Numbered from the stretch's first letter, positions 46,909-64,000 are shown. The stretch: DNA of 64,000 bases from an uncultured bacterium (GCA_949297275.1 CASFQR010000002.1:3202-67201), one strand, 5' to 3'. The notes: generated by a model not told the origin, from the sequence alone. Numbers and translations are program-made.

Positions 46909-49900
46909 ATGGATTATAAAAAAATATTATTCGACCCCGAAATCTTAGAAATTAATCTGCTCAAGCAACATAGTGTCTTCGATCATTATTTGTCGATTGG
47001 GGACGCTAAAAAGGGCATTGATAAAACGATTAAAAATTTAAATGGCAAGTGGCGAGCCCTTTATTTTCAAGACTATGATGCGCCATTTCTTGTTTATGGC
47101 AATGTCAAAACTAATATCAATAAACTCGATACAATCACTGTTCCAATTGCAAAAGAAATTCAAGAGCCGCGCTTTAGTGTGCCTCAATATGTCAATTGGC
47201 AATATCCTTTTGATGGTTATTCTAGCACCCCTATAGATGAAGCACCTGATGTCCCTAATCCATCAATTGTCTATTTAAAAGATCTTAATATCACTAAATT
47301 AAACCAAAAAGAAAAAGATTATATTTTACGCATTGGTTCTTTTTTAAGCGGTTTATTTTTATATGTTAATGGTCAATTTGTCGGTTATAGTGAAAATTGT
47401 TATCTCGATAGTGAATTTAATATTACTGATTATTTAGTAGAAGGTAAAAATAGACTATTAATCATCGTCTTTAAATATTCTTCCTCTTCAATCTTTTTAG
47501 ATATGGATGCCTTCCGTTTTAGTGGCATCCATCGTTCAGTCGAATTAATTACTTTAAATAAAAGACACATTGAAGATGTTGAAATTAAAACGCATCTAGA
47601 TGGCCGCGTTGATGTTAAATTAAGTGGCAATCTTACTGGTTTAACCTTCGTTTATCAAATTAATGAAGTCTTTTATCCGATTAAAATAAAATCTAATCAA
47701 ACAGAAATTACTTTACAAATTAAACCTTCTGATCTTTCTTATTATTCACCGAATAATCCGCGTTGTTATCGTCTTTTAGTCTACGCCTATTTCAATAATA
47801 AATTTGTTGATTCAATTTCTGAAGTATTCGGAATTAGAGAAGTTAAAATTGAAAATAATATTTTATTACTCAACGGTCAACGCTTTGTCTTTAAAGGCAT
47901 TAATCGTCACGAATGGAATAATAGTTTAGGTAACCATGTGACTGAAGATGATATTTTATATGATTTAAATTATTTTAAAAAACATAATATCAACGCTGTT
48001 AGGACATCGCATTATCCAAATACGAATTTCTTTTATTATTGTTGTGACTTTTTAGGTGTGATGATAATCGATGAATGCGCCTTAGAAAGTCATGGGACAA
48101 TTGGTTCATATCTAAATTTTGATGGCAAAAATTCTTTACCCGGCTCAGATGTTCGCTATGAAAAATTAGTGACCACCAAGATTAGAAATATGTATCTTCG
48201 CGATAAAAATCATCCATCGATAATCTTATGGAGTTTAGGAAATGAATCGGGTAGTGGATTAAACTTTATCAAAATGAAAGAAGTCTTAAAAGCATTAAAC
48301 CCCGAGGCTTTAACTCATTATGAAAATGCCTATTTTGATCATCGATATGAAGATTGTTCTGATGTCTTATCAATGATGTATCCTACCCCACAAAAAGTTA
48401 AAGAAATTTTAGATGTAGGTGTTTCTAAACCGTTTATTTTATGTGAGTACGCTCACGCGATGGGTAATTCATTAGGTAATGTGCAAGAATATCTTGATTT
48501 AGTTGATCGCTATCCTTCCTTCCAAGGTGGATTTGTTTGGGATTATCTTGATCAATCCTTCCGCAATAAAGAGCATGGTATTTATTTTTATGGTGGTGAT
48601 TTTGATGATCGACCGAATGATTTAGATTTTTGTGGGAATGGTATCTTACCTTCTCGCGAAAAGAAAGATACTGCGAAAGGTCTCGCTTTAAAAGAATTAT
48701 ATTCCCCATTAAAAATTATTTATGATGATAAAAAGAAAATTCTTACCATTAAACTTTTAGAAAATGATATCAGCGATGCTTCAATTGGAGTTACGATTGA
48801 TACATTTATTGATAATGATTATTATTATCATCTTACAAAAAAATATGGTCTAACTAAACAAAAATCCAAAAGCTTTGATTTAATTGACGCCATTCCAGAA
48901 TTTGATAAAAAGCATACTTATCTATTAAAAGTAGAAGTAATTTTATATCGCAACACTACGAAAATTACTGACCTTAAAAAGACCTTCCTTTTAGCTAGTA
49001 AAGAAAATTATTTTTTAGGTTTAAATAGTCCTTGCCGCATCGTTTATGGTCGTAATAATATTGGAGTAATTGGCAAAGATTATTCTTATTTATTTGCCCT
49101 ATCACCAGTGTCATTTAGAATGCCGGGCTTATATAGTATAAAAATTAAAAATAAAGAATTTTTAGGAACGCCAATTTACCCGACAATCTTTCGCCCTCAT
49201 ACTTCAAATGATATTGGTTCATGGTTCTTTAAAAGAAATCAACATCTATTAACGATGTCTAAATATTTTACTTGCACTGCTAAAGATATATTTTTTGATG
49301 AAGACGATAAATTTTTTATCATTTCTTATCGTTATTCTTTATCGAATAATCAAGATGAATATGCAGTTTTAAAATATGTCATTGCTAAGGATAATGGAAT
49401 TATTAAAGTTGATGCTTATTTATCGTCTTTAACTAGTGTTGAAGAAATCGCGACTTTCGCGACAACTTTGACCTTAAAGCGCGAGAAGGACATTACTTTA
49501 AGATATTTCGGTCGCGGACCTCTTGATAATTATCCAGATCGTTTAGAAGGTTCTAATCTTGGTACCCATGAGATGGTTTATAGTGGTCAAAACTCTAATT
49601 TAGACTCATTTAGTAACGATTATCTTAATCCACAAGAAGAGGGCATGAGAATGGAGTGTCAATGTTTAGAATATCTTAATGATAATTTATTTGTCGGTTT
49701 ACGCTTCTCGCGTAATGAAGCTCCTTTTGCCTATAAATTTAATCACCATAGCGATTTTGAGATTGAAAACGCGCATCACCAATATGAACTTGGTCAATCA
49801 ATTAATGACTATTTAACTATCTGCGGTTTTGTGCGCGGCGTCGGTGGCGATAATTCTTGGGGTGAAGATGTCCATGCCCCTTATCGCTTATCAGCTAAAG

Positions 49901-49959
49901 AGTCTTACCATTTTTCTTATTATCTTGAACCTGTTGATTATAATATAATAATTAAATAA
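46909..49959 (+). CDS. lacZ: GH2 beta-galactosidase
   Basis: The acid/base region ILWSLGNESG, the nucleophile region ILCEYAHAMGNS and the 1016-aa length fit LacZ. Confidence 0.92.
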   Translation: MDYKKILFDPEILEINLLKQHSVFDHYLSIGDAKKGIDKTIKNLNGKWRALYFQDYDAPFLVYGNVKTNINKLDTITVPIAKEIQEPRFSVPQYVNWQYPFDGYSSTPIDEAPDVPNPSIVYLKDLNITKLNQKEKDYILRIGSFLSGLFLYVNGQFVGYSENCYLDSEFNITDYLVEGKNRLLIIVFKYSSSSIFLDMDAFRFSGIHRSVELITLNKRHIEDVEIKTHLDGRVDVKLSGNLTGLTFVYQINEVFYPIKIKSNQTEITLQIKPSDLSYYSPNNPRCYRLLVYAYFNNKFVDSISEVFGIREVKIENNILLLNGQRFVFKGINRHEWNNSLGNHVTEDDILYDLNYFKKHNINAVRTSHYPNTNFFYYCCDFLGVMIIDECALESHGTIGSYLNFDGKNSLPGSDVRYEKLVTTKIRNMYLRDKNHPSIILWSLGNESGSGLNFIKMKEVLKALNPEALTHYENAYFDHRYEDCSDVLSMMYPTPQKVKEILDVGVSKPFILCEYAHAMGNSLGNVQEYLDLVDRYPSFQGGFVWDYLDQSFRNKEHGIYFYGGDFDDRPNDLDFCGNGILPSREKKDTAKGLALKELYSPLKIIYDDKKKILTIKLLENDISDASIGVTIDTFIDNDYYYHLTKKYGLTKQKSKSFDLIDAIPEFDKKHTYLLKVEVILYRNTTKITDLKKTFLLASKENYFLGLNSPCRIVYGRNNIGVIGKDYSYLFALSPVSFRMPGLYSIKIKNKEFLGTPIYPTIFRPHTSNDIGSWFFKRNQHLLTMSKYFTCTAKDIFFDEDDKFFIISYRYSLSNNQDEYAVLKYVIAKDNGIIKVDAYLSSLTSVEEIATFATTLTLKREKDITLRYFGRGPLDNYPDRLEGSNLGTHEMVYSGQNSNLDSFSNDYLNPQEEGMRMECQCLEYLNDNLFVGLRFSRNEAPFAYKFNHHSDFEIENAHHQYELGQSINDYLTICGFVRGVGGDNSWGEDVHAPYRLSAKESYHFSYYLEPVDYNIIIK

Positions 49960-49964
49960 TAAAG

Positions 49965-51131
49965 ATGAAAATCGCTCCTGAAAATTACCCATTATTAGAT
50001 TATCCTTCTAATTTCCGCCGCCTCGGGGCAGGAATTATTGATTTTATTATTTTGTCTTTATTAACTTTTGGTGTCTTTTTAGGTTGCACTTATCAAATTA
50101 TTAAAGTTATTCCTGATTTTGTTAGTCAAGACCAGATTCGCGAAAGCGAGATGCGTGAACTTTATCAAATTTCAGAAGAGGCGGGGCTATTAACTTTAAA
50201 TGAAGATGGTTTAACTTATTCGCAAAACCAATTATTTGAATTTTATGTTTATAAACATATCGAATATGCCTATCATCTAGATCCCGATTTCTTTATTGAT
50301 AGTGGAGTTTCAACCATCAATAATCCTTACGATTTTATTACGATCAATAGTCCTTCTGACGATGATTTTTATCAATTCTATGTTAATTATGCTTCTATGC
50401 ATCAATTAATCGATTACGGCGATTTAAGTCCCCGCGAATATTATGTTAATAACATCTTAAAAGATTATGGTGAAATCTTTCGCGTGAGTGTTAACGAAGG
50501 TATCGTCCCTTTTAATAATGCCTTTGCCCTAAGCTTATATCGCGAAATTAATGGTAGTAGTGATAGCACAGAATATATTGAAAAATTAAGTGATTTTTAT
50601 AGTATAACATTCACTAAAGCGGAAGAATTATTAAGAAGTGATCCCATCTATCAAACTCATTATCAAATCTATGAAACTAATTATTTGGGTTCGATGCAAT
50701 ATCTAGCTTTTGGTATTTTAATCTCATATTTAATTGCTTATTTAGCCGTGCATTTTTTACCAACTTTACTAACAAAATATGGCTTTACTCTTGGACGCTT
50801 TGCTTTTAAATTAGTGATGTTTAAAGACGATGGGCCCGCTAAAAAATTACCAAAATTAGGTCATTTAGGGATTAGTTTTATTTTGCAATATTTCGCTTTA
50901 GCCCTGCCCTTTATCATCGCTTTTGGGACGAATTTTTTAAGCGCGCCATTCTTTATAAGTGTTAACATTAGAGCCTTTAATAACCTACTTTTATGTTTAA
51001 TAAGCGCAATTGCCTTCATCATTATGTATTTTTCAGCATTTATTCGTCGCGATTCGCGCTCTTTAAATGATTTAATTTGCAAGATTGAAATAAAGAATGC
51101 GAAATATTATTTGGAGAAAAATAGTAAATGA
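49965..51131 (+). CDS. RDD-family membrane protein
   Basis: N-terminus NFRRLGAGIIDFIILSLL (RDD motif region), C-terminal TM bundle, ~200-aa middle domain of unknown function. Confidence 0.6.
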   Translation: MKIAPENYPLLDYPSNFRRLGAGIIDFIILSLLTFGVFLGCTYQIIKVIPDFVSQDQIRESEMRELYQISEEAGLLTLNEDGLTYSQNQLFEFYVYKHIEYAYHLDPDFFIDSGVSTINNPYDFITINSPSDDDFYQFYVNYASMHQLIDYGDLSPREYYVNNILKDYGEIFRVSVNEGIVPFNNAFALSLYREINGSSDSTEYIEKLSDFYSITFTKAEELLRSDPIYQTHYQIYETNYLGSMQYLAFGILISYLIAYLAVHFLPTLLTKYGFTLGRFAFKLVMFKDDGPAKKLPKLGHLGISFILQYFALALPFIIAFGTNFLSAPFFISVNIRAFNNLLLCLISAIAFIIMYFSAFIRRDSRSLNDLICKIEIKNAKYYLEKNSK

Positions 51132-52015
51132 AAATCTTAGTCGTTGGAAGTTTGAATATCGATCATAATTATCGTGTAAATAATTTTCTAATTAATGGGC
51201 AAACAGTCGATGCCCTTTCTTATCATTTTAATATTGGTGGCAAAGGTATCAATCAAGCCTACGCTTCTAGTCAATTAGTTGGAACAATGTTTTATGGCAA
51301 AGCGAATTATGAAGATATTAAGAATTTGCTTGAACAATTGCCTTCTAATGATAATTTTAATTTGCAATTAGTGCCCAGCAAATTAAATAGTGGTAACGCC
51401 GCAATAATTCTTAACCAAGAAGGTGAAAATCAAATCATTATTGCTCATGGAGCAAATTATGATTTTAATGATAGCGATTTAGCATATATTAAAACGATAA
51501 TTAATCACTACGATGCCTTACTATTACAAGAAGAAATCAATGAAGATTTTCTTTTTAAATTAATCGATTTAGCAAATCGAGAACAAAAGATTATCTGCTT
51601 AAATCCTGCCCCTTATCATCCATACACCAAAGAATTATTAAATAAGGTGGATATCATTACCCCTAATGAAACTGAATTTATGGCCCTATCAGGATATCGC
51701 TATAGTGATACTCGTCTTTTAGATATCCAAAAACTACTTAATGATAAATTAAAATTAATTATTATTACTCTAGGTGAAAAAGGGGCAGTTGCAATTAGTA
51801 AAGACGGCATCTACCACCAAGAAGCATTTAAAGTTAAAGTTATGGATACAGTTGGAGCTGGTGATACTTTTAATGGTTATTTTTTAGCAAATTATTTATT
51901 GACAAATGATTTAAAATTATCATTAAAACTGGCAACAAAAGCCTCTAGTGCTGCTATAACTAAAAACGGAACATTAGATGCTGTTCCGCAACCTTTTGAA
52001 TTGAATTTTGATTAA
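51128..52015 (+). CDS. rbsK: Ribokinase (PfkB family)
   Basis: N-terminus VVGSLNIDH, GGKGINQA, and the C-terminal GAGDTFNG anion-hole motif. Confidence 0.85.
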   Translation: MKILVVGSLNIDHNYRVNNFLINGQTVDALSYHFNIGGKGINQAYASSQLVGTMFYGKANYEDIKNLLEQLPSNDNFNLQLVPSKLNSGNAAIILNQEGENQIIIAHGANYDFNDSDLAYIKTIINHYDALLLQEEINEDFLFKLIDLANREQKIICLNPAPYHPYTKELLNKVDIITPNETEFMALSGYRYSDTRLLDIQKLLNDKLKLIIITLGEKGAVAISKDGIYHQEAFKVKVMDTVGAGDTFNGYFLANYLLTNDLKLSLKLATKASSAAITKNGTLDAVPQPFELNFD

Positions 52016-52205
52016 AATATTTAATTTCTGCATAGTTTTTATCTTAAAACTTATTTTATTTTTATATTAATTTTTGGCTTATAGTTTCGCATATGTGTGC
52101 GCGTTATAGACGCTAAGTAGTGCATGGCTAAAAATCATCAAGTAAAAAAAGATAATCCTTTTCTTCGCTAAAATTAATTTATAAATATGAGGAAAGGGGT
52201 TAAAT

Positions 52206-53639
52206 ATGAATAGTGTTATTACTTCTATATTATTTCTAACTTTAACGAGTGCTAGTGCCTTTGCCCCACTAAAAATTAATGGTGAAGCAAATAAAATTGC
52301 TGTAAGTTCAATCGAAGCTAAATCAATTTTTGGTGGTTGGTGGGATGATAGTGATGGCGATGCTAGTTGGGTAAATCAAGGTGTGATGGTTAATGTTCCT
52401 AAACAAACTTGGAATTATGAAGCACAATTGCCATCTACTTTTGCTAGCCCATCTTTTAAAAGAAACTTCTCTTTAGTTGATAACGAAGCAATTTCCTTTA
52501 GAATTTCAGCAAATTTTTATGATGAAGATGGCAATGTTATAACTCAAAGCGTTAATGATGGTGGTGGAGCTTTTAATATTGCTGTTTATAATGCGGCAAA
52601 CGAACAGAAAATATCCACTTTAAGAATCTGGGTGAATTCTCAGCCTAACGGCGCTGATCAAAATACCCAATTATGGGCAACTGTAAATGGTGATGATTGG
52701 CAATATAGTGTTAGTGGTGAACGCTGGATTAAAGGTGCAGCTAAATTATCGAGTAGTTTTTACATTCAATTTGATAAAGAAAATCTCTTCTCTAGTTATG
52801 TGGGAGGTTCAGATAGTATTACTCCTTTAGCGACCAACATTGATTATGTAAACGCTGTTAAAAATAATTTAGAAGGTGTCGATGAAGTATTCTTTAGATT
52901 TGGTGCTTCTAATGGTTTTACCGAAGATGCTTCACTAGTAATTTCTGAAATTAATGGCCAAGCATTAACAAATGTCGATGGTATTATTAATGATGTTAGC
53001 GCCCCTAAATTCTCTACGAAAAATAATTTACCTGCTACCTTACCAGTTAATGTACCAGTTGCCTTGAACATAGAAGCTTTTGATCTTTTAGATTCTAATT
53101 TAAAGTATCAAGTTAAATATGGTGAGGATGAATTTAAAGACGGCCTAACCTTTACTCCGTTAGTTGTTGGTGATGATTCAGTCACTATTAAAGCGATTGA
53201 TAGTAGCAATAATGAAACGACATACACTTATAATTTCAAAGGCGTTAATGTGGCCGAATCATTTGCCGAGACATTTTTAAATACGACAAGCGTTTGTGAT
53301 CCCTCTGGTGCTACTAACAATATCACTAGTGAGATGTGGCAAGAACTTGAAGATGCTTATAACGCTCTAAGTGTAGAAGAACGCGCGCGTTTAACAAACG
53401 CTCAAAATAATGAACATGGTACTAAATTAGAAAAGGCAGTTGCTCGCTATGAGTATATTGTTCATAAATATGGTTATAAAGATTTTATGGAGCGAAATGT
53501 TGAGGTTTTAAGTATCAATAATCTAAATAATCATGATGAAGCTTGGTTCTTACCTTTAATTATTTCTTTGTCAGTGATAACTATTTTAGCAGTTGTTGTT
53601 TTAGTAGTTAAAACTCGTAAAAAAGATAAAATCGAATAA
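52206..53639 (+). CDS. C-terminally anchored surface protein (signal peptide, ~230-aa unknown module, Ig-like domain, helical module, TM and basic tail)
   Basis: Has an SD (gaggaaagggg) and a signal peptide. The C-terminal WFLPLIISLSVITILAVVVLVV KTRKKDK has no LPXTG. It is a paralog of 53862. Confidence 0.7.
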   Translation: MNSVITSILFLTLTSASAFAPLKINGEANKIAVSSIEAKSIFGGWWDDSDGDASWVNQGVMVNVPKQTWNYEAQLPSTFASPSFKRNFSLVDNEAISFRISANFYDEDGNVITQSVNDGGGAFNIAVYNAANEQKISTLRIWVNSQPNGADQNTQLWATVNGDDWQYSVSGERWIKGAAKLSSSFYIQFDKENLFSSYVGGSDSITPLATNIDYVNAVKNNLEGVDEVFFRFGASNGFTEDASLVISEINGQALTNVDGIINDVSAPKFSTKNNLPATLPVNVPVALNIEAFDLLDSNLKYQVKYGEDEFKDGLTFTPLVVGDDSVTIKAIDSSNNETTYTYNFKGVNVAESFAETFLNTTSVCDPSGATNNITSEMWQELEDAYNALSVEERARLTNAQNNEHGTKLEKAVARYEYIVHKYGYKDFMERNVEVLSINNLNNHDEAWFLPLIISLSVITILAVVVLVVKTRKKDKIE

Positions 53640-53670
53640 AATTTCTTCTTTTTAAAATTCTATTTCCCCT

Positions 53671-53698
53671 AAAAAGCGTCAAAATTATGACGCTTTTT
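53671..53698 (+). terminator. Rho-independent terminator
   Basis: aaaaagcgtca-aaatta-tgacgcttttt. Confidence 0.8.
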
Positions 53699-53861: not shown

Positions 53862-54674
53862 ATGTTTAAATTATTACTCATTCCAATCCTTAGTTTAACC
53901 ATGATGAACACCTCACTGTTTGTTCGAGAGAGCGTTGATGTTTCTACCCTTAATGCGAATGAAATGTGGGGAGGTTGGGGACATAATACTTCCTTCACGG
54001 AAGATGGTCTTTTAGCTCTTTCACCTGGCCATGATACGGTTGGTGATAACGCTTGGCAATATAAGACGGTATTACCAGGTGTTGGTGTTAGAACTAATAG
54101 CACGAATTATACTCAAAATTTTTCTTTGAATAATAATGAAACAATCTCCTTTGAATTTTCTCTTAATATGTTTGACACTAGCGGCAATGATAATGTCATT
54201 GGCACGCATACCGATGCAAATAATCCAAACGATATTTATTTTTTAGATATTTATGTTCACGATCGAACTAATGATGCCCAATTAGCGTTACTTCGCATCT
54301 TTACCGAAAGTGGTTCAAAATTAAACGGCAATCACTCATCTGCCTTATATGGAAGTGGTTGGGATCAACAATTATCATCATCTTATCGGTTGATGGGCGA
54401 TGCCACTTTAGATAGTAGTTTCTATATTCAATTTGATAAGGATAATCTATTTTCTAGTTATGCAGGAGGACAAGAAGGTATAGTTCATTTATTTGATTTA
54501 AATAGTGATTTAGCTAAAACAATTAAAAATAATTTAGCTAATGTCGATGAAATTATTTTTAAAATTGCCCCTAATACTGGCTGGAATAAAGAAGCTTCTT
54601 TATATTTAAAATCAATTCAATTAGTGATAATGTTGCCCCAACCTTTAACGCTATATCGTTGCCATCCTCTTTAA
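53862..54674 (+). CDS. N-terminal fragment (frame A) of a ~970-aa anchored surface protein; frame broken at 54605-54621 (possible pseudogene)
   Basis: Strong SD (gaggagg) and a signal peptide. It aligns with 52206 through SSFYIQFDKDNLFSSY and NNLANVDEIIF, then diverges into a 20-codon tail and a stop. Confidence 0.7.
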   Translation: MFKLLLIPILSLTMMNTSLFVRESVDVSTLNANEMWGGWGHNTSFTEDGLLALSPGHDTVGDNAWQYKTVLPGVGVRTNSTNYTQNFSLNNNETISFEFSLNMFDTSGNDNVIGTHTDANNPNDIYFLDIYVHDRTNDAQLALLRIFTESGSKLNGNHSSALYGSGWDQQLSSSYRLMGDATLDSSFYIQFDKDNLFSSYAGGQEGIVHLFDLNSDLAKTIKNNLANVDEIIFKIAPNTGWNKEASLYLKSIQLVIMLPQPLTLYRCHPL

Positions 54675-56789: not shown

Positions 56790-58526
56790 ATGAAATATTT
56801 ACGTTTAATGATGTCTTTAGTTGGTTTAAGTATGGTTTTAGGTAGTTGTAATGATACTTGTCCATCTTTAAATTGTGACACTGGTGGCGAAGAAATTTCA
56901 GTTATTAAACCTGTCGAATATGATGATCCATCTAAGAGCGACGCTCTTTATCATGGTGAAGATGTTTTAGTTAGTCAAGTTGCTACTAGTCAAGATGGTG
57001 ATACTTATATTGAATATAATGGCGCGCCCTTTATTTATAATGGCATCCAAATTCGCACCGATGCTTTTATGAACACTGATAAATGGAGCATCGATGAAAT
57101 TGAAATTTTATTTCAAACTGCTAAAGAATGTGGCTTTGACTTAGTGCAAATTCCCCTCGAATGGGCAGATATTGAAATTGCTAAAGATGTTTATGACTTT
57201 TACTATTTATTTAAAATTTTAGAATACGCACGAAAATATGATTTAAGAATGGAACTGCTATGGTTTGGGACAAATATGTGCGGTGACACTCATTCATATA
57301 CTGTGCCTGATTATATTTTAAAAGATGGTAAAACTTATCCAAAATTCGACGCTCCTCGCACGGGTGAGTTCTGGTCATATTATGGCTTGATGTGGTATTT
57401 AGATTTTGACGATCCAGATTTGCTCATGCGCGAAGGCTTAGCGATTGAAAAATGTTTAGATTTTATTTATGAATATGATTCGACGCATGGCGGACATAAA
57501 TCGGTTATTGGTATGCAAATTCATAATGAACCAGATTGTTTCCCCCGTTGGCGCATTTTCACCGCTAATAAAGAAGTTAAAGATCCATTAACAGGTCAAA
57601 CATTCACAAAAGAAGATGCCTTTAAAAATGTTTTAAATGCTTTGGATTATTTAGGTAAAGTGGTAAAAAATCATCCTTATAAGATTATTACTCGTGTCAA
57701 TTTTGCGACGATGACGCGCGGTGATCAAGATGGCGAAAGCAGTGGAATTTATTTAAGTAATGGCAACTTAGCAACAATCCGTGATTTCGTTAAAGACACT
57801 TTTGCTTTAGAAGGTATCGATATAATTGGTGATGATTGCTATGATGCGGTTATTAATGATGTCAAAGGCATTCAATTGATGTTAAAGGAACAATTAGTGG
57901 GCAATTATCCTCATATTGCCGAAAACGATGGCAATTATGCGAACACCCCTAGTTTATTGCTTACTAGTCAAGTTGTTAAGGCTGGCTATATTGTCTATGA
58001 ACTTGCCACCTCTCCTTTCTTTAAGGCAAATAACGCTTCTGATATCGATCAAGGTATTTATTCAGTTAACGCCGATAAGACATTAACTGGCAAAGCCCAT
58101 CAGGTGAATATCACAAAAATGTTAAAAGCAATTAAAGCGTGCAAAAATCCTCTAGTGTTAGCAAAACAAGGAAATGTTTTAGGATTTAATTTAATGTCTA
58201 CTAATCCACAAAACAATTTTATCCAAACCATCAATAGTGAAAATGTTTCAATTACCTTTACTACTTCAACTGGTGCTTTAGGTTATGTTTGTGATTATGA
58301 CAATTCTTTATACGCTTATTTCTTAGGTGATTGTTCCTTAGACATTTCCAACGTGACAGTCAGTGCGATTAGTGTTGGCGATTATAGTGGAGAAGAATTT
58401 ATCTCGACGACAACACTTAACGCTACTAGCAATATTAATATCACTGCAAATCAATTATATAAAATAGATTATCGTGATGTTAAGTCTCCTTTAATTAGTA
58501 ACGCTCTTGAAGCGATAGGAGGTTAA
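56790..58526 (+). CDS. Lipoprotein with a clan GH-A-like (TIM-barrel) glycoside hydrolase signature, family unassigned
   Basis: Lipobox VLGSC, the IPLEWADIE...LLWFG pattern, an NEP acid/base motif (MQIHNEPD, E at 57528-57530) and a candidate nucleophile IAEND. Confidence 0.65.
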   Translation: MKYLRLMMSLVGLSMVLGSCNDTCPSLNCDTGGEEISVIKPVEYDDPSKSDALYHGEDVLVSQVATSQDGDTYIEYNGAPFIYNGIQIRTDAFMNTDKWSIDEIEILFQTAKECGFDLVQIPLEWADIEIAKDVYDFYYLFKILEYARKYDLRMELLWFGTNMCGDTHSYTVPDYILKDGKTYPKFDAPRTGEFWSYYGLMWYLDFDDPDLLMREGLAIEKCLDFIYEYDSTHGGHKSVIGMQIHNEPDCFPRWRIFTANKEVKDPLTGQTFTKEDAFKNVLNALDYLGKVVKNHPYKIITRVNFATMTRGDQDGESSGIYLSNGNLATIRDFVKDTFALEGIDIIGDDCYDAVINDVKGIQLMLKEQLVGNYPHIAENDGNYANTPSLLLTSQVVKAGYIVYELATSPFFKANNASDIDQGIYSVNADKTLTGKAHQVNITKMLKAIKACKNPLVLAKQGNVLGFNLMSTNPQNNFIQTINSENVSITFTTSTGALGYVCDYDNSLYAYFLGDCSLDISNVTVSAISVGDYSGEEFISTTTLNATSNINITANQLYKIDYRDVKSPLISNALEAIGG

Positions 58527-58527
58527 A

Positions 58528-60171
58528 ATGAAAAGAAATTTTTTACTATTGATTAGTGCTTTATTTTTAGTTGGTTGCAATGAAACATGTCCAACTTGTC
58601 CCCCGTTAGCGGGCGATATCGTAATAACTAAACAAGAAGTCTATAGTGCCCCTTATACATCGATAGCTAGTGAAAAATCATATATCGTTAATCAAAACAA
58701 TCAACCGCAGTTAATTTTATCTTCTTTAATTAGAACTGATTTATTAAGAAACGCTGATTTTTTAGAATATAGCGAAATGGAAGACTATTTTGCTATCGCT
58801 AAAGAGACGGGTTTTAATACTGTCGATGTCGTCATTACTTGGGCGGAAGTTGAACCGCATCGCAACGAATATGATTTTTCTAGTATTGAAGCTTATTTAA
58901 ACTACGCGTTAAAATACGACTTAAAATTAAATGTTATTTGGTATGGTTCGCTTGTTGATGGCGAATCGCATGGGGCTAATATTCCCCAATATATCCAATC
59001 TAATCCTGATGTTTATCCGGTGTTATTAGATTTATTTGATGGTGCCTATTATGGTCGTTTTCGCATTTTAGATTGGGACGATCCTGATTTAATCGCCCGC
59101 GAAAGCAGTGCGATATATTCTTTATTTAATTACATTTATGATTGGACGAGTGAAAAAGAATATAAAGATCCAGTTATTATGGCTCAAATTGGACAAGGAG
59201 TCGACCGTTTTCATAAGTGGCGCATCTCCCAATACACTGTTCCGGGTATAGAAACTGAATTAATGACATTAGAGGAAGCATTAGCGATGACTAATACCTA
59301 CTTAAATGAACTAGCAAAAGCCGTCAAATATTCGCGTTATCGCCCTTTAACAAGAGCGGAATTCTGCGAACAAACTGGAGTCGTTAATTATGTTAGAGAA
59401 GTTTATGATTTAGAATATATCGACATTGTTGCGACGACTTATCTTCACGATATTTCAGCGGCAAGAAATGGCATTCGTTCTTTTGCTGATGAATTTGATG
59501 GCATGCCAGTTATCAATGCGGAAAACTGGGCGAACGATATCAATCATCGCATGACTTTAGCTAATATTGCTTTAGGGGCAGTTGGTTATACCGCTTATCA
59601 ATTATCTAATCCGGTTTATTTCCCAGAAAATCCTAATGGTGCACTTTATGAAAGATACGATTCCTCTAAGGCGACTTTAGAAGAAAAGTTCATTCCAATT
59701 GCTAATCGTGTGACTTATACTAAGTCGGTTATGAATGCTTTAAATAATTTATACGTTCCAGCTAGCAAGACCATCCGATCTAATTTTGCAGCCTTAGGTT
59801 ATGATAACCGCCTTACTAGCGATAACGAAAACCAAAAAGTTTATCTAAGTAGCGGAGTCATGCTCGAATTTAATAAGCCGACCTCCTCGATTGCTTTTGT
59901 TATGCATGAAGGGGATTATCTATATGCTTATTCTTTAAATGATGCTTCCATAACCTTCTCTAATTGCGCATTATTAAATGCTCAAAAGGGTCAATTTGAT
60001 GAATATCAAACCTTTAGTGGTGAAGCTGTTAGTCTAGAAAATAACATCACATTAAATTTAAAAGGAGGAGAAACTTATCGTCTCAGAGTCACAAGCGTGA
60101 ATGATTTACCAAGTGCGAGTGAACTTCGCGAATTAAATTATTCTTCTACTTTAGATGCGATTAGGTCATAG
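58528..60171 (+). CDS. Paralogous lipoprotein, GH-A-like fold with the NEP acid/base motif replaced (QGV)
   Basis: Lipobox FLVGC. It is collinear with 56790 (ITWAEVEP...VIWYG, DWDDPDL, INAENW), but AQIGQGVD replaces MQIHNEPD. Confidence 0.6.
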   Translation: MKRNFLLLISALFLVGCNETCPTCPPLAGDIVITKQEVYSAPYTSIASEKSYIVNQNNQPQLILSSLIRTDLLRNADFLEYSEMEDYFAIAKETGFNTVDVVITWAEVEPHRNEYDFSSIEAYLNYALKYDLKLNVIWYGSLVDGESHGANIPQYIQSNPDVYPVLLDLFDGAYYGRFRILDWDDPDLIARESSAIYSLFNYIYDWTSEKEYKDPVIMAQIGQGVDRFHKWRISQYTVPGIETELMTLEEALAMTNTYLNELAKAVKYSRYRPLTRAEFCEQTGVVNYVREVYDLEYIDIVATTYLHDISAARNGIRSFADEFDGMPVINAENWANDINHRMTLANIALGAVGYTAYQLSNPVYFPENPNGALYERYDSSKATLEEKFIPIANRVTYTKSVMNALNNLYVPASKTIRSNFAALGYDNRLTSDNENQKVYLSSGVMLEFNKPTSSIAFVMHEGDYLYAYSLNDASITFSNCALLNAQKGQFDEYQTFSGEAVSLENNITLNLKGGETYRLRVTSVNDLPSASELRELNYSSTLDAIRS

Positions 60172-60173
60172 TT

Positions 60174-61859
60174 ATGCTTAAAGCTCATGTTAATTCGATT
60201 ATTAAATATGAACATAAAGTAGGTGAATATGTTTTAAGACACCGCCATGAAGTGTATGAATTAGTTTATTATGTGTGTGGTGAAGGTCTATTAACGATTG
60301 AAGGAGATGGTTACTCTTATCAAGAAGGAACCATTACCATTACTAAAAAAGGTGTCATTCACGATGAAACCACGAAAGTGTACACTAAATGTATTATCGC
60401 CTTATTCGAACTTGACGAAGAAATTGATGACGATTTTATTTTGGTGAATTTAAACGATAAAGATCTAGTTGAAGTAAATCATATTTTTCATCAAATCTTT
60501 GCTGAAGAAACAGCGGATTTACCATACAAAAAGAAGTTGATTAACAATTACTTCAACGTCATATTGACTTATATTTTTCGTGAGAAATATGCCTATCAAG
60601 CCGAAGAAAAAAGCTATTTATCTTTAAATAAAAGAGCGAAAGCTTTCATCAAAGAAAATTATAAACAAAATATTGATTTTGCCCTATTAGCCAAATCATA
60701 TGGTTATTCCTACTCGCGTTTTCGCCATATCTTTAAAGAAGAAAATAATATTTCTTTAAATTCTTATTTGATTAATTATCGCCTCGATATGGCAAAAGTA
60801 TTTTTGCAAAATAAAAAATACTCCGTTAAAGAAGTTGGTTATCAAGTCGGCTTTAAATCACCAAGTTATTTTAATGCCTCTTTTATTAAAAAATTTCATT
60901 TAACTCCATTAGAATTCCGTCGTTCAATTAAAGATGTCGTTGGAGTAGGGGTCGCTAAACTAAAAGGTTTAGAGACGATTATCTTTGATACTGATTTAGG
61001 ATATGATTGCGATGATGTTGGAGCGCTTGCCCTCTTAAATATCTTTAAAAATCGCAATTTTATCGATTTAAAAGCGATTATTCATTCCGCCAAAAATAAT
61101 CAAGAGGCCGACAAAGCCATCTATGCGATTAATAAATATTATGGTAATAAAGACATTCCAATTGGTTTATCTAATATTTCTAACCCCACTTTAAATCAAT
61201 TAAAAATTAATCCTTATCAAGCTGCGTTAATCGATGAATTTTATCATGGTGAAAATATTATTAAGCACGATTCTTTAGATTTGCTCATTAAAACTTTAAT
61301 CAACGCGGAAGATCAATCTATCACCATCTTAATTACTGGCTTTTTAACTAATGTCGTCGCTTTAATGAAAACGATAAAAGTAAGCGATAATTTAAGCGGT
61401 AGCGATTTAATTAAAAAGAAAGTTTCTCGCTTTGTCATCATGGGTGGAGCGTTTAAAACTAGTCAACCAGAATTTAATCTTTTAAGTGATTTAAACGCGA
61501 GCATCTATTTCTTTCAACATGTTGAAACACCGACATATTTATTAGATTATGATACCGGTGTGACAATCTTTACTGGTCAAAACATGATTGATTCAGTAAA
61601 TAAAAATCCCATTGGAGTCTCTTATTCTATCTGCAACGGGAAAGCGCGAGAATCTTGGGATCCTCTAACAGCTTTATTTGCGATTAATCATGATGACCAC
61701 TTATTTACTTTATCAAAAAGTGGAAATGTTGAAATCGATCAAGAAGGTTATTCGACCTTTCAAGAAGATAAAAATGGCTTTGTCCGTTTAATTTTATTAA
61801 GAGAAACACCACAGATGGTGGAAAAAATTATCAATAAATACTGGGAGGAAAACAAATGA
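60174..61859 (+). CDS. AraC-family regulator (cupin + HTH) fused to a nucleoside-hydrolase-fold domain
   Basis: Residues 1-255 have a cupin (RHRHEVYELVYYVCGEG) and an AraC HTH (...YSYSRFRHIFKE...GFKSPSYFNASFIKKFHLTPLEFRR). Residues ~268-561 start with IIFDTDLGYDCDDVGALALL, resembling the DTDxGxDD metal/ribose motif of IU-nucleoside hydrolases. Confidence 0.75.
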   Translation: MLKAHVNSIIKYEHKVGEYVLRHRHEVYELVYYVCGEGLLTIEGDGYSYQEGTITITKKGVIHDETTKVYTKCIIALFELDEEIDDDFILVNLNDKDLVEVNHIFHQIFAEETADLPYKKKLINNYFNVILTYIFREKYAYQAEEKSYLSLNKRAKAFIKENYKQNIDFALLAKSYGYSYSRFRHIFKEENNISLNSYLINYRLDMAKVFLQNKKYSVKEVGYQVGFKSPSYFNASFIKKFHLTPLEFRRSIKDVVGVGVAKLKGLETIIFDTDLGYDCDDVGALALLNIFKNRNFIDLKAIIHSAKNNQEADKAIYAINKYYGNKDIPIGLSNISNPTLNQLKINPYQAALIDEFYHGENIIKHDSLDLLIKTLINAEDQSITILITGFLTNVVALMKTIKVSDNLSGSDLIKKKVSRFVIMGGAFKTSQPEFNLLSDLNASIYFFQHVETPTYLLDYDTGVTIFTGQNMIDSVNKNPIGVSYSICNGKARESWDPLTALFAINHDDHLFTLSKSGNVEIDQEGYSTFQEDKNGFVRLILLRETPQMVEKIINKYWEENK

Positions 61860-63253
61860 AGAAAAGACATTTTCAAGCATCGTTATTAACGATTATTAGT
61901 TTATTGCTTTTAACTGGTTGCGACAATAACTCTAAACGCGATTATGTCATCCTTTATATTTGGGGCGATAATAGTGAAATTAGTAGTTATGAAAGTATCG
62001 CAAGTAGTTATCGAGAGTTAACTGGCACAGAGGTTCGCGTCATTCCGGCAACGGATAGCTATTACAATAGTTTAAATATTCAACTAGGTTCTTCAAAAAG
62101 TGCACCTGATATCTTTTTTACTGAAGGCGGAGAATTTCCTAGTCACATCGCTAGTAACAAATTATTAAATTTGACGCCTTATATAGAGTCTGGTGCCTTA
62201 GATATTAAAACTGCCTCTAATGACGATGGACAAATTGAGTTATGGGATATCAACGATTCCTATCGTTATGATGGTGATAGTATTGGCCAAGGCGATTATT
62301 ACGCTTTAATTAAAGACTGGTCGCCAGATTTTGTCTTATGGTATAACAAAGGTCTTTTCGATCGTTATAACGAAGTAAATAATTACCAAGCTGGCGATGA
62401 AGGGTTTTTAGAATACCCTAGTGAAACTATTCCGATGAGCTGGGATGAATTTTATGATTTATCGAATAAATTTGTCGGATTAGATTTAGGTGATGGCGTT
62501 AAGGTTAATTATGGCACGATGCTCGACCGCGTTCCTTATAAACATTTGATGGAGTGGATTCAAATGACTGGTAGTAGCACTTGGACAAGCGATGGAATGG
62601 AATTTAATTATACTGATCCAGGCGTTAAAAAGGCCTTTGAATTCTTTATCAATTTGCAAAACGGCGAGAAGAAATCTTCCCCAATTATTGGTCCAACATC
62701 AATTGGTAGTGGCGATTTATTTAGAAATGGTCAGTTGCCATTTTGCTTTTATGGTAACTGGGCTTATTCTAATTATAATTGGGACACGATCGGCTTTGAA
62801 TTTGGTTTATGTCCACCTCCAGTACCCGCTAAAGAGAGCGGTGAAGCTCTCACTATCGAAGATACATATGCGACTAGTTGCGGAATGGTTGGTTTAGCCG
62901 TTTATCGTTCTTCCCCAGTCGTTGATAAGGCGGTAGACTTTTTAAATTATTATATGACAGTTGGCCAAGAATTTATGGCTGAAAAATCTTTTAATATTCC
63001 CGGTAATAAACTCGTTGCTAGTAGCGATGCTTTTATGGAAAACGAAGATGCAAATATTGCCTATATCAATGAGTTTTTTATGAACATCGCGACAAATTAT
63101 ACCCACGAGATTGTTTATAATAAATATGTTTCCCAAGAGGCATTTGAAAATATTATTGGAATTTATCTAATCCCATATATTGAAAATCCTTCTAGCTCTA
63201 ATTTAGATAAAGTTTTAGAAAATATTCATAATGATTTAATGCTCGAAATTTAA
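61856..63253 (+). CDS. ABC transporter substrate-binding lipoprotein (family-1 sugar SBP)
   Basis: Lipobox LLLTGC, 465 aa, with typical SBP_bac_1 features. It overlaps the regulator gene by 4 nt (ATGA) and permease genes follow. Confidence 0.85.
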   Translation: MKKRHFQASLLTIISLLLLTGCDNNSKRDYVILYIWGDNSEISSYESIASSYRELTGTEVRVIPATDSYYNSLNIQLGSSKSAPDIFFTEGGEFPSHIASNKLLNLTPYIESGALDIKTASNDDGQIELWDINDSYRYDGDSIGQGDYYALIKDWSPDFVLWYNKGLFDRYNEVNNYQAGDEGFLEYPSETIPMSWDEFYDLSNKFVGLDLGDGVKVNYGTMLDRVPYKHLMEWIQMTGSSTWTSDGMEFNYTDPGVKKAFEFFINLQNGEKKSSPIIGPTSIGSGDLFRNGQLPFCFYGNWAYSNYNWDTIGFEFGLCPPPVPAKESGEALTIEDTYATSCGMVGLAVYRSSPVVDKAVDFLNYYMTVGQEFMAEKSFNIPGNKLVASSDAFMENEDANIAYINEFFMNIATNYTHEIVYNKYVSQEAFENIIGIYLIPYIENPSSSNLDKVLENIHNDLMLEI

Positions 63254-63254
63254 A

Positions 63255-64000
63255 ATGGAAAAAGTTGATATTCTCGATATAACTAAACAAAGGAAAAGTT
63301 TCAATCCTGAAAAACGAAAGACGATGCTCTTTTTCGCCTATATTTCCCCTTGGTTAATTGGTTTGATACTTTTTACTCTCGTCCCAATATGTATCTCTTT
63401 TGTTTTATCGTTTACTAATACGTCGATGATGAATTTTTCTAGCGATCCTTGGGAGTTTGTTGGTATTGATAATTATCTTAGAATATTTCGGGAAGATGCT
63501 ACCTTTTTAAGAGCTTTGCTCAATACTTTTATTTACGCCTTTGTTAAAGTCTTTTTGTTAGTAATTATCGCCTTATTAATCGCCTTATTGCTCAATAAAA
63601 AGATCGTAGGTCGCAAAGTCTTTCGCGTTTTGATTTATTTGCCGAGCATCATTCCTGTCGTCAGCGTTGCTCTTTTATGGAAAATGATTTTCACTGGCGG
63701 CGAATATAATATTGTCAATTACGTTTTATCTTTTTTTGGTTTTCCTGCCATTGATTTCTTTGGCGGAGAAGCCTCAAGTATGGCGACGATTATCTTCATT
63801 GGGATATGGAATGGTTTAGGTCCAACGATGTTAATCCTTTTAGCGGGTATCCAAGGCATCGATCACGATATCATTGAGGCGAGTGAACTCGATGGTGTCA
63901 ATGTCTTCCAAAAATTTTGGCACATCGTTTTACCTTCGTTATCTTCAACAATTTTCTTTGTTACTTTGACAAGCTTAATTTCTTCCTTACAAGTTTATGC
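63255..64000 (+). CDS. Sugar ABC transporter permease (MalF/UgpA type), 3' end outside the window
   Basis: My translation from ATG 63255 gives MEKVDILDITKQRKSFNPEKRKTMLFFAYISPWLIGLILFTLVPICISFVLSFTN..., typical of a CUT1 permease N-terminus. The frame is open to the window edge. Confidence 0.8.
   Translation, partial: MEKVDILDITKQRKSFNPEKRKTMLFFAYISPWLIGLILFTLVPICISFVLSFTNTSMMNFSSDPWEFVGIDNYLRIFREDATFLRALLNTFIYAFVKVFLLVIIALLIALLLNKKIVGRKVFRVLIYLPSIIPVVSVALLWKMIFTGGEYNIVNYVLSFFGFPAIDFFGGEASSMATIIFIGIWNGLGPTMLILLAGIQGIDHDIIEASELDGVNVFQKFWHIVLPSLSSTIFFVTLTSLISSLQVY

Follow-up and report, generated by a model that had tools for sequence, protein, structure and literature searches.

A gut Bacillota gene cluster as a probable ABC-based counterpart of the Bacteroides ribose utilisation system

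A gene cluster of an uncultured Bacillota bacterium from the gut appears to be a monoderm, ABC-based counterpart of Rus, the ribose utilisation system of Bacteroides thetaiotaomicron (PUL BT2802-BT2809; Glowacki et al., bioRxiv 10.1101/574913; Cell Host Microbe 2020). The locus probably harvests a glycan or glycoconjugate with beta-ribofuranosyl and beta-galactosyl residues, a reading given a probability of roughly 0.6. It is based on three functions with homologues in rus-type loci, on gene order conserved in two phyla, and on folds and patterns of catalytic residues. Three undescribed parts are added to Rus: lectin-like surface proteins, an enzyme paralogue without a catalytic acid, and a fusion of a regulator with a ribosidase-like domain. 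No other comparison is as informative for this locus as the one with Rus and ribose, and it replaces the generic galactan or mucin framing of an initial annotation of the same DNA.

Results

Extent and gene content of the locus

The window is the whole stretch of DNA analysed, 64,000 nucleotides, and the locus forms a single + strand cluster from 46909 to 64000. ORF calling and translation recovered the glycan-type gene set of the initial annotation, each ORF in place:

46909-49959, + strand: GH2 LacZ-type beta-galactosidase, cytoplasmic, 1016 aa, no signal peptide (Pfam, NCBIfam)
49965-51131, + strand: RDD-family polytopic membrane protein, 388 aa (Pfam RDD, E 1.6e-7)
51128-52015, + strand: PfkB-family ribokinase-like kinase, 295 aa, RusK counterpart (Pfam PfkB, E 2.8e-46)
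52206-53639, + strand: lectin-like surface protein, 477 aa, signal peptide and C-terminal TM anchor (AF2/Foldseek)
53862-56785, + strand: large paralogous surface protein, disrupted here; intact form 984 aa (N-domain paralogy, PKD match)
56790-58526, + strand: surface lipoprotein, 578 aa, DUF4978/RusGH family, predicted GH35-like retaining glycosidase (Pfam DUF4978)
58528-60171, + strand: surface lipoprotein, 547 aa, DUF4978 "QG" variant (paralogy, family HMM, motif)
60174-61859, + strand: AraC regulator (cupin and two HTH) with a C-terminal RusNH-type nucleoside-hydrolase-like (NH) domain, cytoplasmic (Pfam)
61856-63253, + strand: CUT1-type solute-binding lipoprotein (SBP), 465 aa (lipobox, Pfam SBP_bac_8/SBP_bac_1)
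63256-64000, + strand: first ABC permease, BPD_transp_1 type, truncated by the window end (sequence read)

In the same species the cluster runs beyond the window edge, where two permeases and an ABC ATPase are encoded. A promoter and terminator scan of the locus gave counts equal to those of shuffled sequences. Relatives are listed as Ca. Onthovivens, uncultured Mollicutes, Bacilli and Anaeroplasmataceae.

The cassette is conserved in two phyla

An HMM scan covered 73 loci. The cassette is present in about 25 Bacillota MAGs, as independent loci with the same gene order: lectin-like protein, DUF4978, DUF4978 QG, AraC with NH (fused or separate), SBP, two permeases and PfkB, often with GH2. Clustering is far beyond chance. 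About 36 Bacteroidota loci encode DUF4978, NH and PfkB together with SusC/D. Both phyla pair DUF4978 with NH, PfkB and a transporter, which is SusC/D plus RusT in Bacteroidota and an SBP plus two permeases in Bacillota. HMMs for SusC and SusD, built from loci L033 and L036, match all Bacteroidota loci and neither the window nor any monoderm locus. The initial annotation had named a lack of synteny in relatives, beforehand, as grounds for abandoning its proposal; these grounds fall away because the genes are strongly syntenic across Bacilli and Clostridia.

The Bacteroides rus-type locus L036 matches the order of BT2802-09 exactly: regulator, two PfkB kinases, SusC, SusD, a DUF4969/DUF4978 lipoprotein, IU_nuc_hydro and permease. 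Its DUF4978 protein belongs to the same 90% cluster as a B. thetaiotaomicron protein. BT2807 is thus presumably a DUF4978 protein, as judged from gene order and the 90% cluster rather than from the accession itself.

The lipoproteins belong to the DUF4978 family

The initial annotation regarded the parts of this locus as mostly unassignable, a description that no longer applies to the two lipoproteins or to the AraC-fused domain. By sequence, the lipoproteins encoded at 56790 and 58528 are DUF4978 proteins with a GH35-like fold and clearly homologous to the surface GH that the Bacteroides rus PUL has in the RusGH position. The proposal that they are paralogous and GH-A-like is borne out by 27% identity (E 9e-50) and the GH35-like fold; their translations contain the lipoboxes LGSC (56790) and LVGC (58528). 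The 56790 protein scores 73.6 bits (E 2.1e-20) against Pfam DUF4978 (PF16349; gathering threshold 29.3 bits), and aligns over 532 aa at 37% identity (E 2e-101) with the lipoprotein that L036 encodes in the RusGH position. The 58528 protein remains below the Pfam threshold at 19.6 bits, but matches the family HMM built in this analysis at E 6e-148.

The DUF4978 family profile matches GH35 structures at 2e-20, with the NEP acid/base and AEN nucleophile motifs aligned. Among 107 DUF4978 ORFs, 90 share the catalytic N-E/E residues without variation; 56790 keeps the pair (N246-E247 and E378). It thereby shows the Glu acid/base after strand 4 (NEP) and the Glu nucleophile after strand 7 (AEN) by which clan GH-A is recognised. 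Membership of CAZy GH35 by sequence was considered for both lipoproteins and rejected: the Pfam GH35 model PF01301 gives 22.9 bits for 58528 (cut-off 27 bits) and no match for 56790, and NF051902 (GH35_fam) gives 56-58 bits against a cut-off of 500 bits. The Pfam GH42 model is likewise below its cut-off for these lipoproteins. One of the Bacteroides enzymes on which GH147 was founded, WP_029428318.1, is not among the few accessions listed for the B. cellulosilyticus DUF4978 cluster.

In 58528 the acid/base Asn-Glu is replaced by Gln-Gly, whereas the nucleophile and the remaining invariant residues are retained (WEEQQGDDENY versus WEEQNEDDENY over eleven columns). The suspicion that one lipoprotein is non-catalytic is consistent with this loss of the acid/base Glu. 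The QG-type motif is common to 16 further second-position paralogues (AG in one) and occurs in none of the 89 remaining ORFs. The resulting 17-member clade is monophyletic, with identities of 39-99%, and is the deepest branch of a midpoint-rooted NJ tree of the family, sister to all 88 other sequences. In Foldseek, an AF2 model of 58528 (pLDDT 81.5, pTM 0.85) matches bacterial GH35 enzymes of two domains over its full length (TM 0.63-0.69), which confirms the GH-A fold for a protein that itself lacks the acid/base.

An AraC regulator is fused to a RusNH-type domain

The gene at 60174-61859 fuses an AraC regulator to an enzyme-fold domain, as first proposed. HTH_18 scores 64.6 bits (cut-off 33.6 bits, E 1e-17); in the N-terminal cupin, AraC_binding passes at 22.2 bits (cut-off 21.1 bits) and Cupin_2 falls short at 22.6 bits (cut-off 27.2 bits). 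IU_nuc_hydro (PF01156) matches residues 269-525 with 59.8 bits (cut-off 34.2 bits, E 4.6e-16). On sequence the NH domain is classed as RusNH-type and nucleoside-hydrolase-like; it shares 30% identity (E 1e-25) with the protein in the RusNH position of L036. The NH domain alone has no direct PDB match; the profile of its subfamily matches IUNH structures at 2e-14. The subfamily conserves the N-terminal DTDxGxDCDD Asp cluster, EFN..D with the E-x-N motif of ribose binding, and R..WD, and the catalytic His of group I IU-NH (His241 equivalent; PDB 8qnd) aligns with the invariant Trp of R..WD. AraC and NH are fused in nine loci of distinct organisms and are adjacent separate genes in six.

The SBP gene lies directly 3' of AraC/NH, an arrangement conserved across monoderm loci. 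Its product has the lipobox LTGC and matches SBP_bac_8 (1.5e-18) and SBP_bac_1 (2.3e-16). The first permease is full-length (318-321 aa) in L010 and L011. In L011 the whole ABC importer is visible: after the first permease come a second (296 aa) and an MsmK-like ATPase (537 aa), beyond which lies an unrelated, convergent gene.

Kinase, LacZ and RDD protein

The kinase matches the TIGR02152 ribokinase model with E 5.4e-63 and 213 bits, under the cut-off of 299.65 bits, and shares 30% identity (E 9e-39) with the second of the PfkB kinases in L036. A PfkB gene lies within the cassette or at its end in L012, L013, L018, L019, L020, L024 and L073. The ribokinase is a conserved cassette member rather than an incidental sugar gene. 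A shortfall against the NCBI ribokinase cut-off is a point against the Rus reading.

LacZ has GH2 N, TIM and small-chain domains (Pfam Glyco_hydro_2_N/2_C/Bgal_small_N) and matches NCBIfam beta_gal_Bga2A with E 1.5e-230 and 768 bits, below the equivalog cut-off of 999 bits. GH2 is found in 13 monoderm loci and beside DUF4978 in some Bacteroidota loci, including that of B. cellulosilyticus (L033). An RDD gene has the same position, after GH2, in L011, L012 and L013, the closest relatives; in L022 it adjoins the lectin-like gene, and that contig shows no GH2.

The anchored surface proteins

The proteins encoded at 52206 and 53862 are paralogues (N-domains 34% identical, E 5e-35; Ig-like parts 45% identical), and the translations of both contain a signal peptide and a C-terminal TM anchor. 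Four surface proteins had been called unassignable. This holds for the anchored pair insofar as they match no named family, although a fold can now be suggested; it does not hold for the DUF4978 lipoproteins. The 52206 protein and the N-domain match no family in Pfam or NCBIfam. The predicted architecture of 52206 is a ConA/L-lectin-like jelly-roll N-domain, an Ig/PKD-like domain, a helical stalk and the TM anchor. Its AF2 model has an overall pLDDT of 68.6, with an all-beta N-domain and an Ig domain at about 85-90. The top Foldseek PDB match is the L-lectin and cadherin-like binding region of the staphylococcal adhesin SraP (4m00, E 2e-11; TM ~0.26 over a multi-domain alignment), followed by PL7 jelly rolls and then PKD domains. 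The anchored proteins are thus predicted, from a medium-confidence model with a low TM, to carry Ig/PKD domains together with one or two ConA/L-lectin-like jelly rolls.

The larger gene, previously taken as one ORF, does encode a paralogous anchored protein but is not intact here. It is split into two ORFs (53862-54674 and 54659-56785) because of a 31-bp deletion (AATGGTCAAAAGCTAAATAGCGTAGATGGTG) that follows position 54605 and is flanked by direct repeats of CAATT. Three further assemblies carry an intact gene of ~975-984 aa: L001 and L011 (99% identical), both with an unbroken 984-aa version, and L003, which is more distant. The intact architecture comprises a signal peptide, lectin-like, Ig-like, second diverged lectin-like and PKD-like domains, and the TM anchor. 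The middle region matches the N-domain profile (hhalign 98.2%, E 5.9e-14), and the 53862-56785 protein has a Pfam PKD match (E 3.8e-7).

The lectin-like family is rare: a word search gives seven matches, and of 1.84e9 representatives 59 clusters match at E<=1e-30, including giant proteins that match the Ig-like part alone. Members were found almost only in loci of this kind. The ~950-1000-aa form lies directly 5' of DUF4978 in 13 independent monoderm loci of Bacilli and Clostridia, where the two genes are a few bases apart or overlap by as much; a shorter form lies immediately 3' of DUF4978 in L006, L044, L054 and L070. Invariant columns of the family alignment are G, F, N, P and D in the Ig part, and the alignment contains no conserved charged residues suggestive of catalysis.

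Discussion

A working model for the locus can be proposed from homology, synteny and predicted structure. The two anchored ConA/L-lectin-like proteins would hold a polymer at the cell surface, where the RusGH-type lipoprotein 56790, with intact catalytic residues, may cut it. The QG paralogue 58528 may serve as a non-hydrolytic binding subunit or act where the substrate offers a good leaving group. The CUT1 SBP and ABC importer would take up an oligosaccharide or riboside. CUT1 and CUT2 binding proteins differ in the ligands they indicate, and the type found here points to an oligosaccharide. The imported substrate is therefore likely an oligosaccharide rather than free ribose, because the SBP is CUT1-type. 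In the cytoplasm the NH domain would free ribofuranose, GH2 would free beta-galactose, and PfkB would make ribose-5-phosphate. The AraC moiety, joined to the ribosidase-like domain, would control transcription, possibly by sensing a substrate or product.

What is known of Rus bears on this model. Rus is induced by ribose and its kinases are required for growth on ribose (10.1101/574913). RusNH, secreted to the periplasm, cleaves pNP-beta-D-ribofuranoside and is weak on nucleosides. RusGH, a surface lipoprotein GH without an assigned family, acts weakly on pNP-ribofuranoside in a Ca-dependent manner, whereas other pNP-glycosides and glycans used by B. thetaiotaomicron gave no activity (10.1101/574913). 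Deletion of RusGH and RusNH caused no phenotype in B. thetaiotaomicron, and both are dispensable for growth on nucleosides (10.1101/574913). The weak activity of RusGH in vitro and the lack of a deletion phenotype are points against the Rus reading. Rus-type PULs have one or two ribokinase genes; RusGH-like and RusNH-like enzymes belong to the B. thetaiotaomicron prototype and vary among the others. The Rus survey was limited to Bacteroidetes, and Firmicutes are not mentioned in the preprint (10.1101/574913).

An ordinary beta-galactan or galacto-oligosaccharide locus is a credible if unlikely alternative. The DUF4978 proteins would be surface beta-galactosidases or galactanases, GH2 would finish degradation in the cytoplasm, and the kinase and NH would be accessory or regulatory. 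GH35 structures are the best profile and fold matches of the lipoproteins, and the recurrence of GH2 in monoderm loci and in L033 fits as well. Furthermore, L054, L063 and L070 (monoderm) encode DUF4978, the N-domain protein and GH2 with no NH gene in the flank covered, so ribose may not be universal to the family. However, RusGH showed no detectable activity on pNP substrates other than the ribofuranoside or on B. thetaiotaomicron-used glycans, conservation of DUF4978 goes along with that of NH and PfkB in two phyla, and the Pfam GH35 and GH42 scores are under their cut-offs.

Salvage of ribose from nucleosides or nucleic acids is improbable. NH would hydrolyse imported nucleosides and the kinase would trap ribose, with the surface proteins as unrelated neighbours. 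The IU_nuc_hydro domain with its intact Asp cluster and the ribokinase-like gene are compatible with such a role, and RNA or nucleosides were the first hypothesis of the Rus authors (10.1101/574913). Against it, RusNH is weak on nucleosides, rusNH and rusGH are dispensable for nucleoside growth, an invariant Trp replaces the catalytic His, and the repeated tight linkage to a CUT1 SBP, GH35-like enzymes and lectin-like proteins would be superfluous. Still less probable is that the anchored proteins are SraP-like adhesins for host or particles beside a sugar operon, making the locus two unrelated units, as the SraP match and the 190- and 222-bp gaps either side of gene 52206 might suggest, given that both forms adjoin DUF4978 in independent loci and the family was found almost only in that setting.

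Like SraP (4m00) and PL7 lyases, the anchored proteins combine a predicted jelly-roll N-domain with cadherin/PKD-like Ig domains at the surface, but share no sequence similarity with SraP or other ConA-like jelly rolls. The lipoproteins resemble two-domain GH35 enzymes (CjBgl35A 4d1i, Xanthomonas 8faa/7kmn and Caulobacter 3u7v) in their TIM barrel and C-terminal beta-sandwich, and bacterial GH35 in the aligned NEP acid/base and nucleophile Glu. Unlike those enzymes, they are only 12-14% identical to them and fall below the Pfam GH35 cut-off, and the one characterised relative, RusGH, showed no beta-galactosidase activity. Natural GH-A relatives without the acid/base include myrosinase (GH1, Glu to Gln) and chitinase-like lectins; the QG clade, from a different family, similarly loses the general acid/base alone and keeps the rest of the pocket.

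The gpPULs of Roseburia, Eubacterium and related genera co-locate GHs, an ABC/SBP transporter and a regulator. The corresponding parts here are GH2 and DUF4978, the SBP, permeases and ATPase, and AraC, so the PUL- or gpPUL-like logic first suggested (surface binding, GH-A-type lipoproteins, hybrid regulator and CUT1-type importer in one cluster) stands. Both tether glycan-active proteins at the surface, combine an ABC importer dependent on an SBP with a regulator of AraC type, and have an exo-glycosidase in the cytoplasm. Unlike in gpPULs, the surface enzymes are lipoproteins or have a TM anchor in place of a sortase/LPXTG one, the binding modules fall outside known CBM families, and the enzyme family is the uncharacterised RusGH/DUF4978. 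As anticipated, HMM and Pfam scans detected no SusC/D, S-layer or sortase-type domain among the locus proteins, and neither anchored protein has an LPXTG motif at its C-terminus.

As in rus, homologues of RusK (a ribokinase gene), RusGH and RusNH are clustered with a regulator and a transporter in a gut-associated organism. Unlike rus, the locus lacks SusC/SusD, and HMM scans of the window found no RusT or RusR; it has instead a CUT1 SBP, two permeases, an ATPase and AraC. NH, periplasmic in Rus, is cytoplasmic here and fused to the regulator. The locus further adds to rus an acid/base-less GH paralogue, lectin-like anchored proteins and GH2.

Results

All open reading frames of the initial annotation were recovered at the same coordinates on the + strand. 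The genes on either side of the surface proteins were assigned as follows:

46909-49959, + strand: GH2 LacZ-type beta-galactosidase (Pfam/NCBIfam)
49965-51131, + strand: RDD-family membrane protein (Pfam)
51128-52015, + strand: PfkB/ribokinase-like kinase (Pfam/NCBIfam)
60174-61859, + strand: AraC regulator (cupin and HTH_18) with a C-terminal IU_nuc_hydro domain (Pfam)
61856-63253, + strand: SBP_bac_1/8 lipoprotein (Pfam)
63256-64000, + strand: permease, interrupted by the window edge (sequence reading)

Lipoboxes (LGSC, LVGC, LTGC), signal peptides and C-terminal TM anchors are visible in the translations of the locus proteins. In the homologous locus L011, the sequence beyond the window edge encodes two permeases, then an MsmK-like ATPase; the next gene is convergent and unrelated, so the full unit comprises twelve same-strand genes. 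Gaps of about 200 bp separate genes at only two points in this unit, and a promoter and terminator scan of the locus gave counts equal to those of shuffled sequences. The remainder of the window contains housekeeping genes and a surface-polysaccharide biosynthesis cluster (31730-45957) directly upstream of the glycan locus. Its products include a 973-aa Wzy_C/O-antigen-ligase-like membrane protein and several glycosyltransferases of family GT4; genes of the GDP-mannose pathway and one for a Bac_transf priming transferase (45286-45957) are also present. A TPP riboswitch (RF00059), whose 59 bits exceed the gathering score, lies at 5927-6031 (+), upstream of the open reading frame 6054-7022.

The paralogous surface-protein gene proposed at 53862-56785 is present, but it is not a single intact open reading frame; the window contains two. 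Alignment with a same-species assembly (L001) revealed that 31 bp, lying between CAATT direct repeats, are missing from the window after 54605. The gene is intact, encoding 975-984 aa, in L001, L011 (99% identical) and L003. The deletion site (54590-54620) also contains a slippery-like heptamer, T_TTA_AAA. A programmed -1 frameshift at this heptamer, near 54598, is ruled out, as other assemblies carry the missing 31 bp.

A profile scan for the DUF4978 family, using one genome per GTDB species, yielded 63 loci. Among these, Bacteroides loci such as L036 encode, in order, a regulator without a Pfam match, two PfkB kinases, SusC, SusD, a DUF4969/DUF4978 lipoprotein (539 aa), an IU_nuc_hydro protein (338 aa) and a sugar permease. 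The architecture of such loci is exactly that of the B. thetaiotaomicron ribose utilization system, rusR-K1-K2-C-D-GH-NH-T (BT2802-09; bioRxiv 10.1101/574913), and a B. thetaiotaomicron protein falls in the same 90%-identity cluster as the 539-aa protein. Three window proteins match components of L036: lipoprotein 56790 matches the RusGH position (37% over 532 aa, E 2e-101), the nucleoside-hydrolase-like (NH) domain of 60174 the RusNH position (30%, E 1e-25), and the PfkB kinase 51128 the RusK2 position (30%, E 9e-39).

Component HMMs built from the sequences gathered in this analysis were used to scan 73 loci. About 36 Bacteroidota loci contain one to four copies of DUF4978 with SusC/D, and most also contain NH, PfkB and RusT. 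The initial annotation had made synteny in relatives a point on which its glycan locus could fall; the locus is syntenic, with the cassette in about 25 Bacillota loci. The Bacillota cassette starts with [GH2][RDD], a lectin-like protein of ~950-1000 aa, DUF4978, a DUF4978 variant and, in some, a third DUF4978, and continues with AraC and NH, SBP, two permeases and PfkB. The ribokinase belongs to this conserved gene set. The source organisms are recorded as uncultured Bacilli, Mollicutes, Anaeroplasmataceae, Erysipelotrichaceae, Ca. Onthovivens, Christensenellaceae, Oscillospiraceae and Clostridia, and a sporulating Clostridia MAG (GCA_017467275.1) has the cassette in a different gene order. 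A second monoderm layout was observed in three loci of uncultured Bacilli/Firmicutes (L054, L063, L070), with a divergent AraC, SBP, two permeases, two DUF4978 genes, a ~520-aa N-domain protein (related to the lectin-like proteins) and GH2; no NH gene is present within the flanking sequence examined. Three loci recorded as Bacteroides uniformis, Roseburia hominis and Prevotella sp. CAG:755 (L012, L013, L014) are probably from mislabelled bins, since they carry the monoderm cassette and their lipoproteins are 60-66% identical to the window lipoprotein.

The two lipoproteins 56790 and 58528 are paralogues (27% identity, E 9e-50); 56790 scores above the Pfam DUF4978 threshold (PF16349) and 58528 below it. 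In a 53-sequence family alignment E129, E215 and E378 are invariant and N246-E247 is nearly so. The family profile matches bacterial GH35 structures at about 2e-20, with the NEP acid/base aligned and the AEN nucleophile aligned more weakly. The AF2 model of 58528 (pLDDT 81.5, pTM 0.85) matches two-domain GH35 beta-galactosidases over their full length (TM 0.63-0.69, 12-14% identity). Neither lipoprotein scores as GH35 at Pfam and NCBIfam thresholds, and the DUF4978 lipoproteins constitute a clan GH-A family of their own, with a fold like that of GH35. Diversification of DUF4978 is greatest in Bacteroidota. For example, the Rus-type PUL of a Lentimicrobium MAG (L031) has four paralogues and a Paludibacter MAG (L034) has two, some of them 786-1055 aa long with extra domains.

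Eleven active-site columns were surveyed in 107 DUF4978 open reading frames. The catalytic N-E pair is found in 90 (as S-E in one), and 78 of the 90 have the full WEEQNEDDENY pattern; the other 12 comprise ten ending in F, one with S for N and one with Q at the second column. The remaining pattern, WEEQ-QG-DDENY, occurs in 17/107 (AG replaces QG in one). All 17, including 58528, are the second DUF4978 gene of a monoderm locus, and in a neighbour-joining tree they form one clade with pairwise identities of 39-99% (median 52%). One of the two lipoproteins had been described as apparently non-catalytic, which holds at the residue level as QG in place of N-E, and the 17-member clade indicates that the acid/base loss in 58528 is a conserved feature rather than decay. 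The QG proteins are thus an old paralogue that has lost only the general acid/base, with the nucleophile and the rest of the pocket kept under selection. The pattern fits an enzyme-derived, non-hydrolytic binding subunit. It also fits a putative catalyst for substrates that need no acid catalysis, by analogy with myrosinase.

The two anchored surface proteins are also paralogues, with 34% identity over the N-terminal ~250 aa (E 5e-35) and 45% over the Ig-like parts. The N-domain has no Pfam or NCBIfam match. A word-indexed search found seven relatives, and the same type of search with the N-domain alignment found at least ten. When 1.84 billion representatives were searched exhaustively by HMM, 59 clusters matched at E<=1e-30; weaker matches were mostly to giant repeat proteins and covered only their Ig-like segment. 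The AF2 model of 52206 (pLDDT 68.6; N-domain mostly 60-89, Ig domain 85-90) consists of an all-beta jelly roll, an Ig/PKD-like domain, a helical stalk and a TM anchor. Its best Foldseek PDB match (E 2e-11) is to SraP, a staphylococcal adhesin, in the L-lectin and cadherin-like binding region; PL7 jelly rolls and PKD domains rank next. The low TM scores (about 0.26) are in line with a multi-domain query. The model thus assigns the N-domain to a predicted fold class and not to a ligand, and no conserved acidic or basic residues suggestive of catalysis were found in the domain. The ~1000-aa form has a second N-domain copy, diverged from the first, in its middle region (hhalign 98.2%, E 5.9e-14). 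The ~950-1000-aa form is immediately 5' of DUF4978 in 13 loci, and shorter N-domain proteins are found elsewhere in the cassette in the window and in L003, L006, L023, L044, L054 and L070. This arrangement argues that the anchored proteins are a substrate-capture component, not unrelated adhesins.

A lectin-like N-domain was considered and rejected for the head of a 1244-aa DUF4978 protein in the Clostridia locus L006 (nothing by BLASTP; hhalign probability 5%). The 477-aa window protein carries a C-terminal helical module directly ahead of its TM anchor (53250-53560; FL..TS.CD..G..NNITS..W ... ARYEYI..KYG). The module is also found in P0006, a protein whose N-terminal part is unrelated, and may be a reusable stalk or anchor module.

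The NH domain had no match in a direct phmmer search against the PDB; the profile of its subfamily matches IUNH structures at 2e-14. The subfamily conserves a DxDxGxDxDD cluster, E-x-N-x3-D and R-x-x-W-D, with an invariant Trp at the position of the group-I catalytic His. AraC and NH are one open reading frame in nine loci of distinct organisms, including the window. In six others (L012, L013, L019, L020, L024, L032) they are adjacent, slightly overlapping genes, each with its own Met start. Therefore, the fusion is the joining of two neighbouring genes. Free-standing NH proteins lack a signal peptide. The AraC cupin has an H-x-H-x3-E ... H-D-E pattern, invariant in three distant orthologues (window 60174-60400; L003:19647-21413; L006:3149-4894), that is typical of metal-binding cupins and unusual in AraC sensor domains. 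Separately, two Muribaculaceae MAGs (L055:7887-9884 and L059:7887-9884) contain a 666-codon frame matching the RusT permease (4e-139) and the NH domain (8e-64), which may be a transporter-NH fusion and a second independent fusion of NH.

Discussion

The Bacteroides Rus system affects gut colonization fitness (bioRxiv 10.1101/574913). RusNH cleaves pNP-beta-D-ribofuranoside and is weak on nucleosides, and the surface lipoprotein RusGH has only weak Ca-dependent pNP-ribofuranoside activity. The authors consider the roles of both "enigmatic" and propose a larger polymer; their survey is of Bacteroidetes only, with no mention of Firmicutes (bioRxiv 10.1101/574913). Searches of the literature collection used here on DUF4978, on BT2807 and ribofuranosidase, and on Rus-like loci in Firmicutes returned nothing but this preprint.

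The best-supported model has five steps, with activities, substrate and co-transcription predicted from homology, synteny, residue patterns and folds. The lectin-like anchored proteins, and possibly the QG lipoprotein, would bind an extracellular polymer that the catalytic RusGH-type lipoprotein would fragment. The product would be imported by the CUT1-type SBP and ABC system. CUT1 systems carry oligosaccharides, and free ribose enters via RbsB-type CUT2 systems. In the cytoplasm, the RusNH-type domain would remove ribofuranose, GH2 would remove beta-galactose, and PfkB would phosphorylate ribose. AraC would control transcription, possibly with the fused enzyme domain as its sensor.

A plain beta-galactan locus would explain a subset of these genes, as would nucleoside salvage; however, neither explains the co-conservation of DUF4978, NH and PfkB across phyla. 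Many uncultured gut Bacillota conserve the trio of GH, NH and kinase, always with an oligosaccharide-type ABC importer and frequently alongside lectin-like surface binders or a GH2 of the LacZ type. This association argues for a polymeric ribofuranoside/galactoside as the substrate, rather than free ribose or nucleosides. Adhesins beside an unrelated operon would also cover only a subset of the genes, and leave the same co-conservation unexplained.

A more far-reaching reading, tentatively held at a probability of roughly 0.3, is a distinct monoderm Rus-type system with three undescribed components that targets a polymer of beta-ribofuranose and beta-galactose, the natural Rus substrate; the polymer is suggested by the three components and the recurrent GH2. 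The first component would be a new family of ConA-like surface glycan binders. The second would be an ancient, conserved RusGH paralogue minus the acid/base only. It would bind glycans for the system without hydrolysing them, as an enzyme-derived functional analogue of SusD/SGBP, or would instead turn over substrates whose leaving groups are activated. The third would be an AraC::ribosidase fusion, a "trigger enzyme" that couples cleavage of imported ribosides to transcription.

If this monoderm Rus reading is true, Rus-type scavenging reaches beyond Bacteroidota. The loci provide independent comparative constraints on the natural substrate of the two Rus enzymes, and their lipoproteins, lectin domain and SBP are simpler soluble targets for biochemistry. 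The analysis also defines three unannotated protein groups, the Pfam-less ConA-like surface domain, the QG clade of DUF4978 and the AraC::NH fusions, which could help to annotate gut Bacilli with reduced genomes, a group whose carbohydrate niches are poorly understood.

Finally, the window locus would work like the Rus PUL, but strictly it is not one, as SusC/D, RusT and RusR were tested for and are absent. It falls within the loose definition of a gpPUL.
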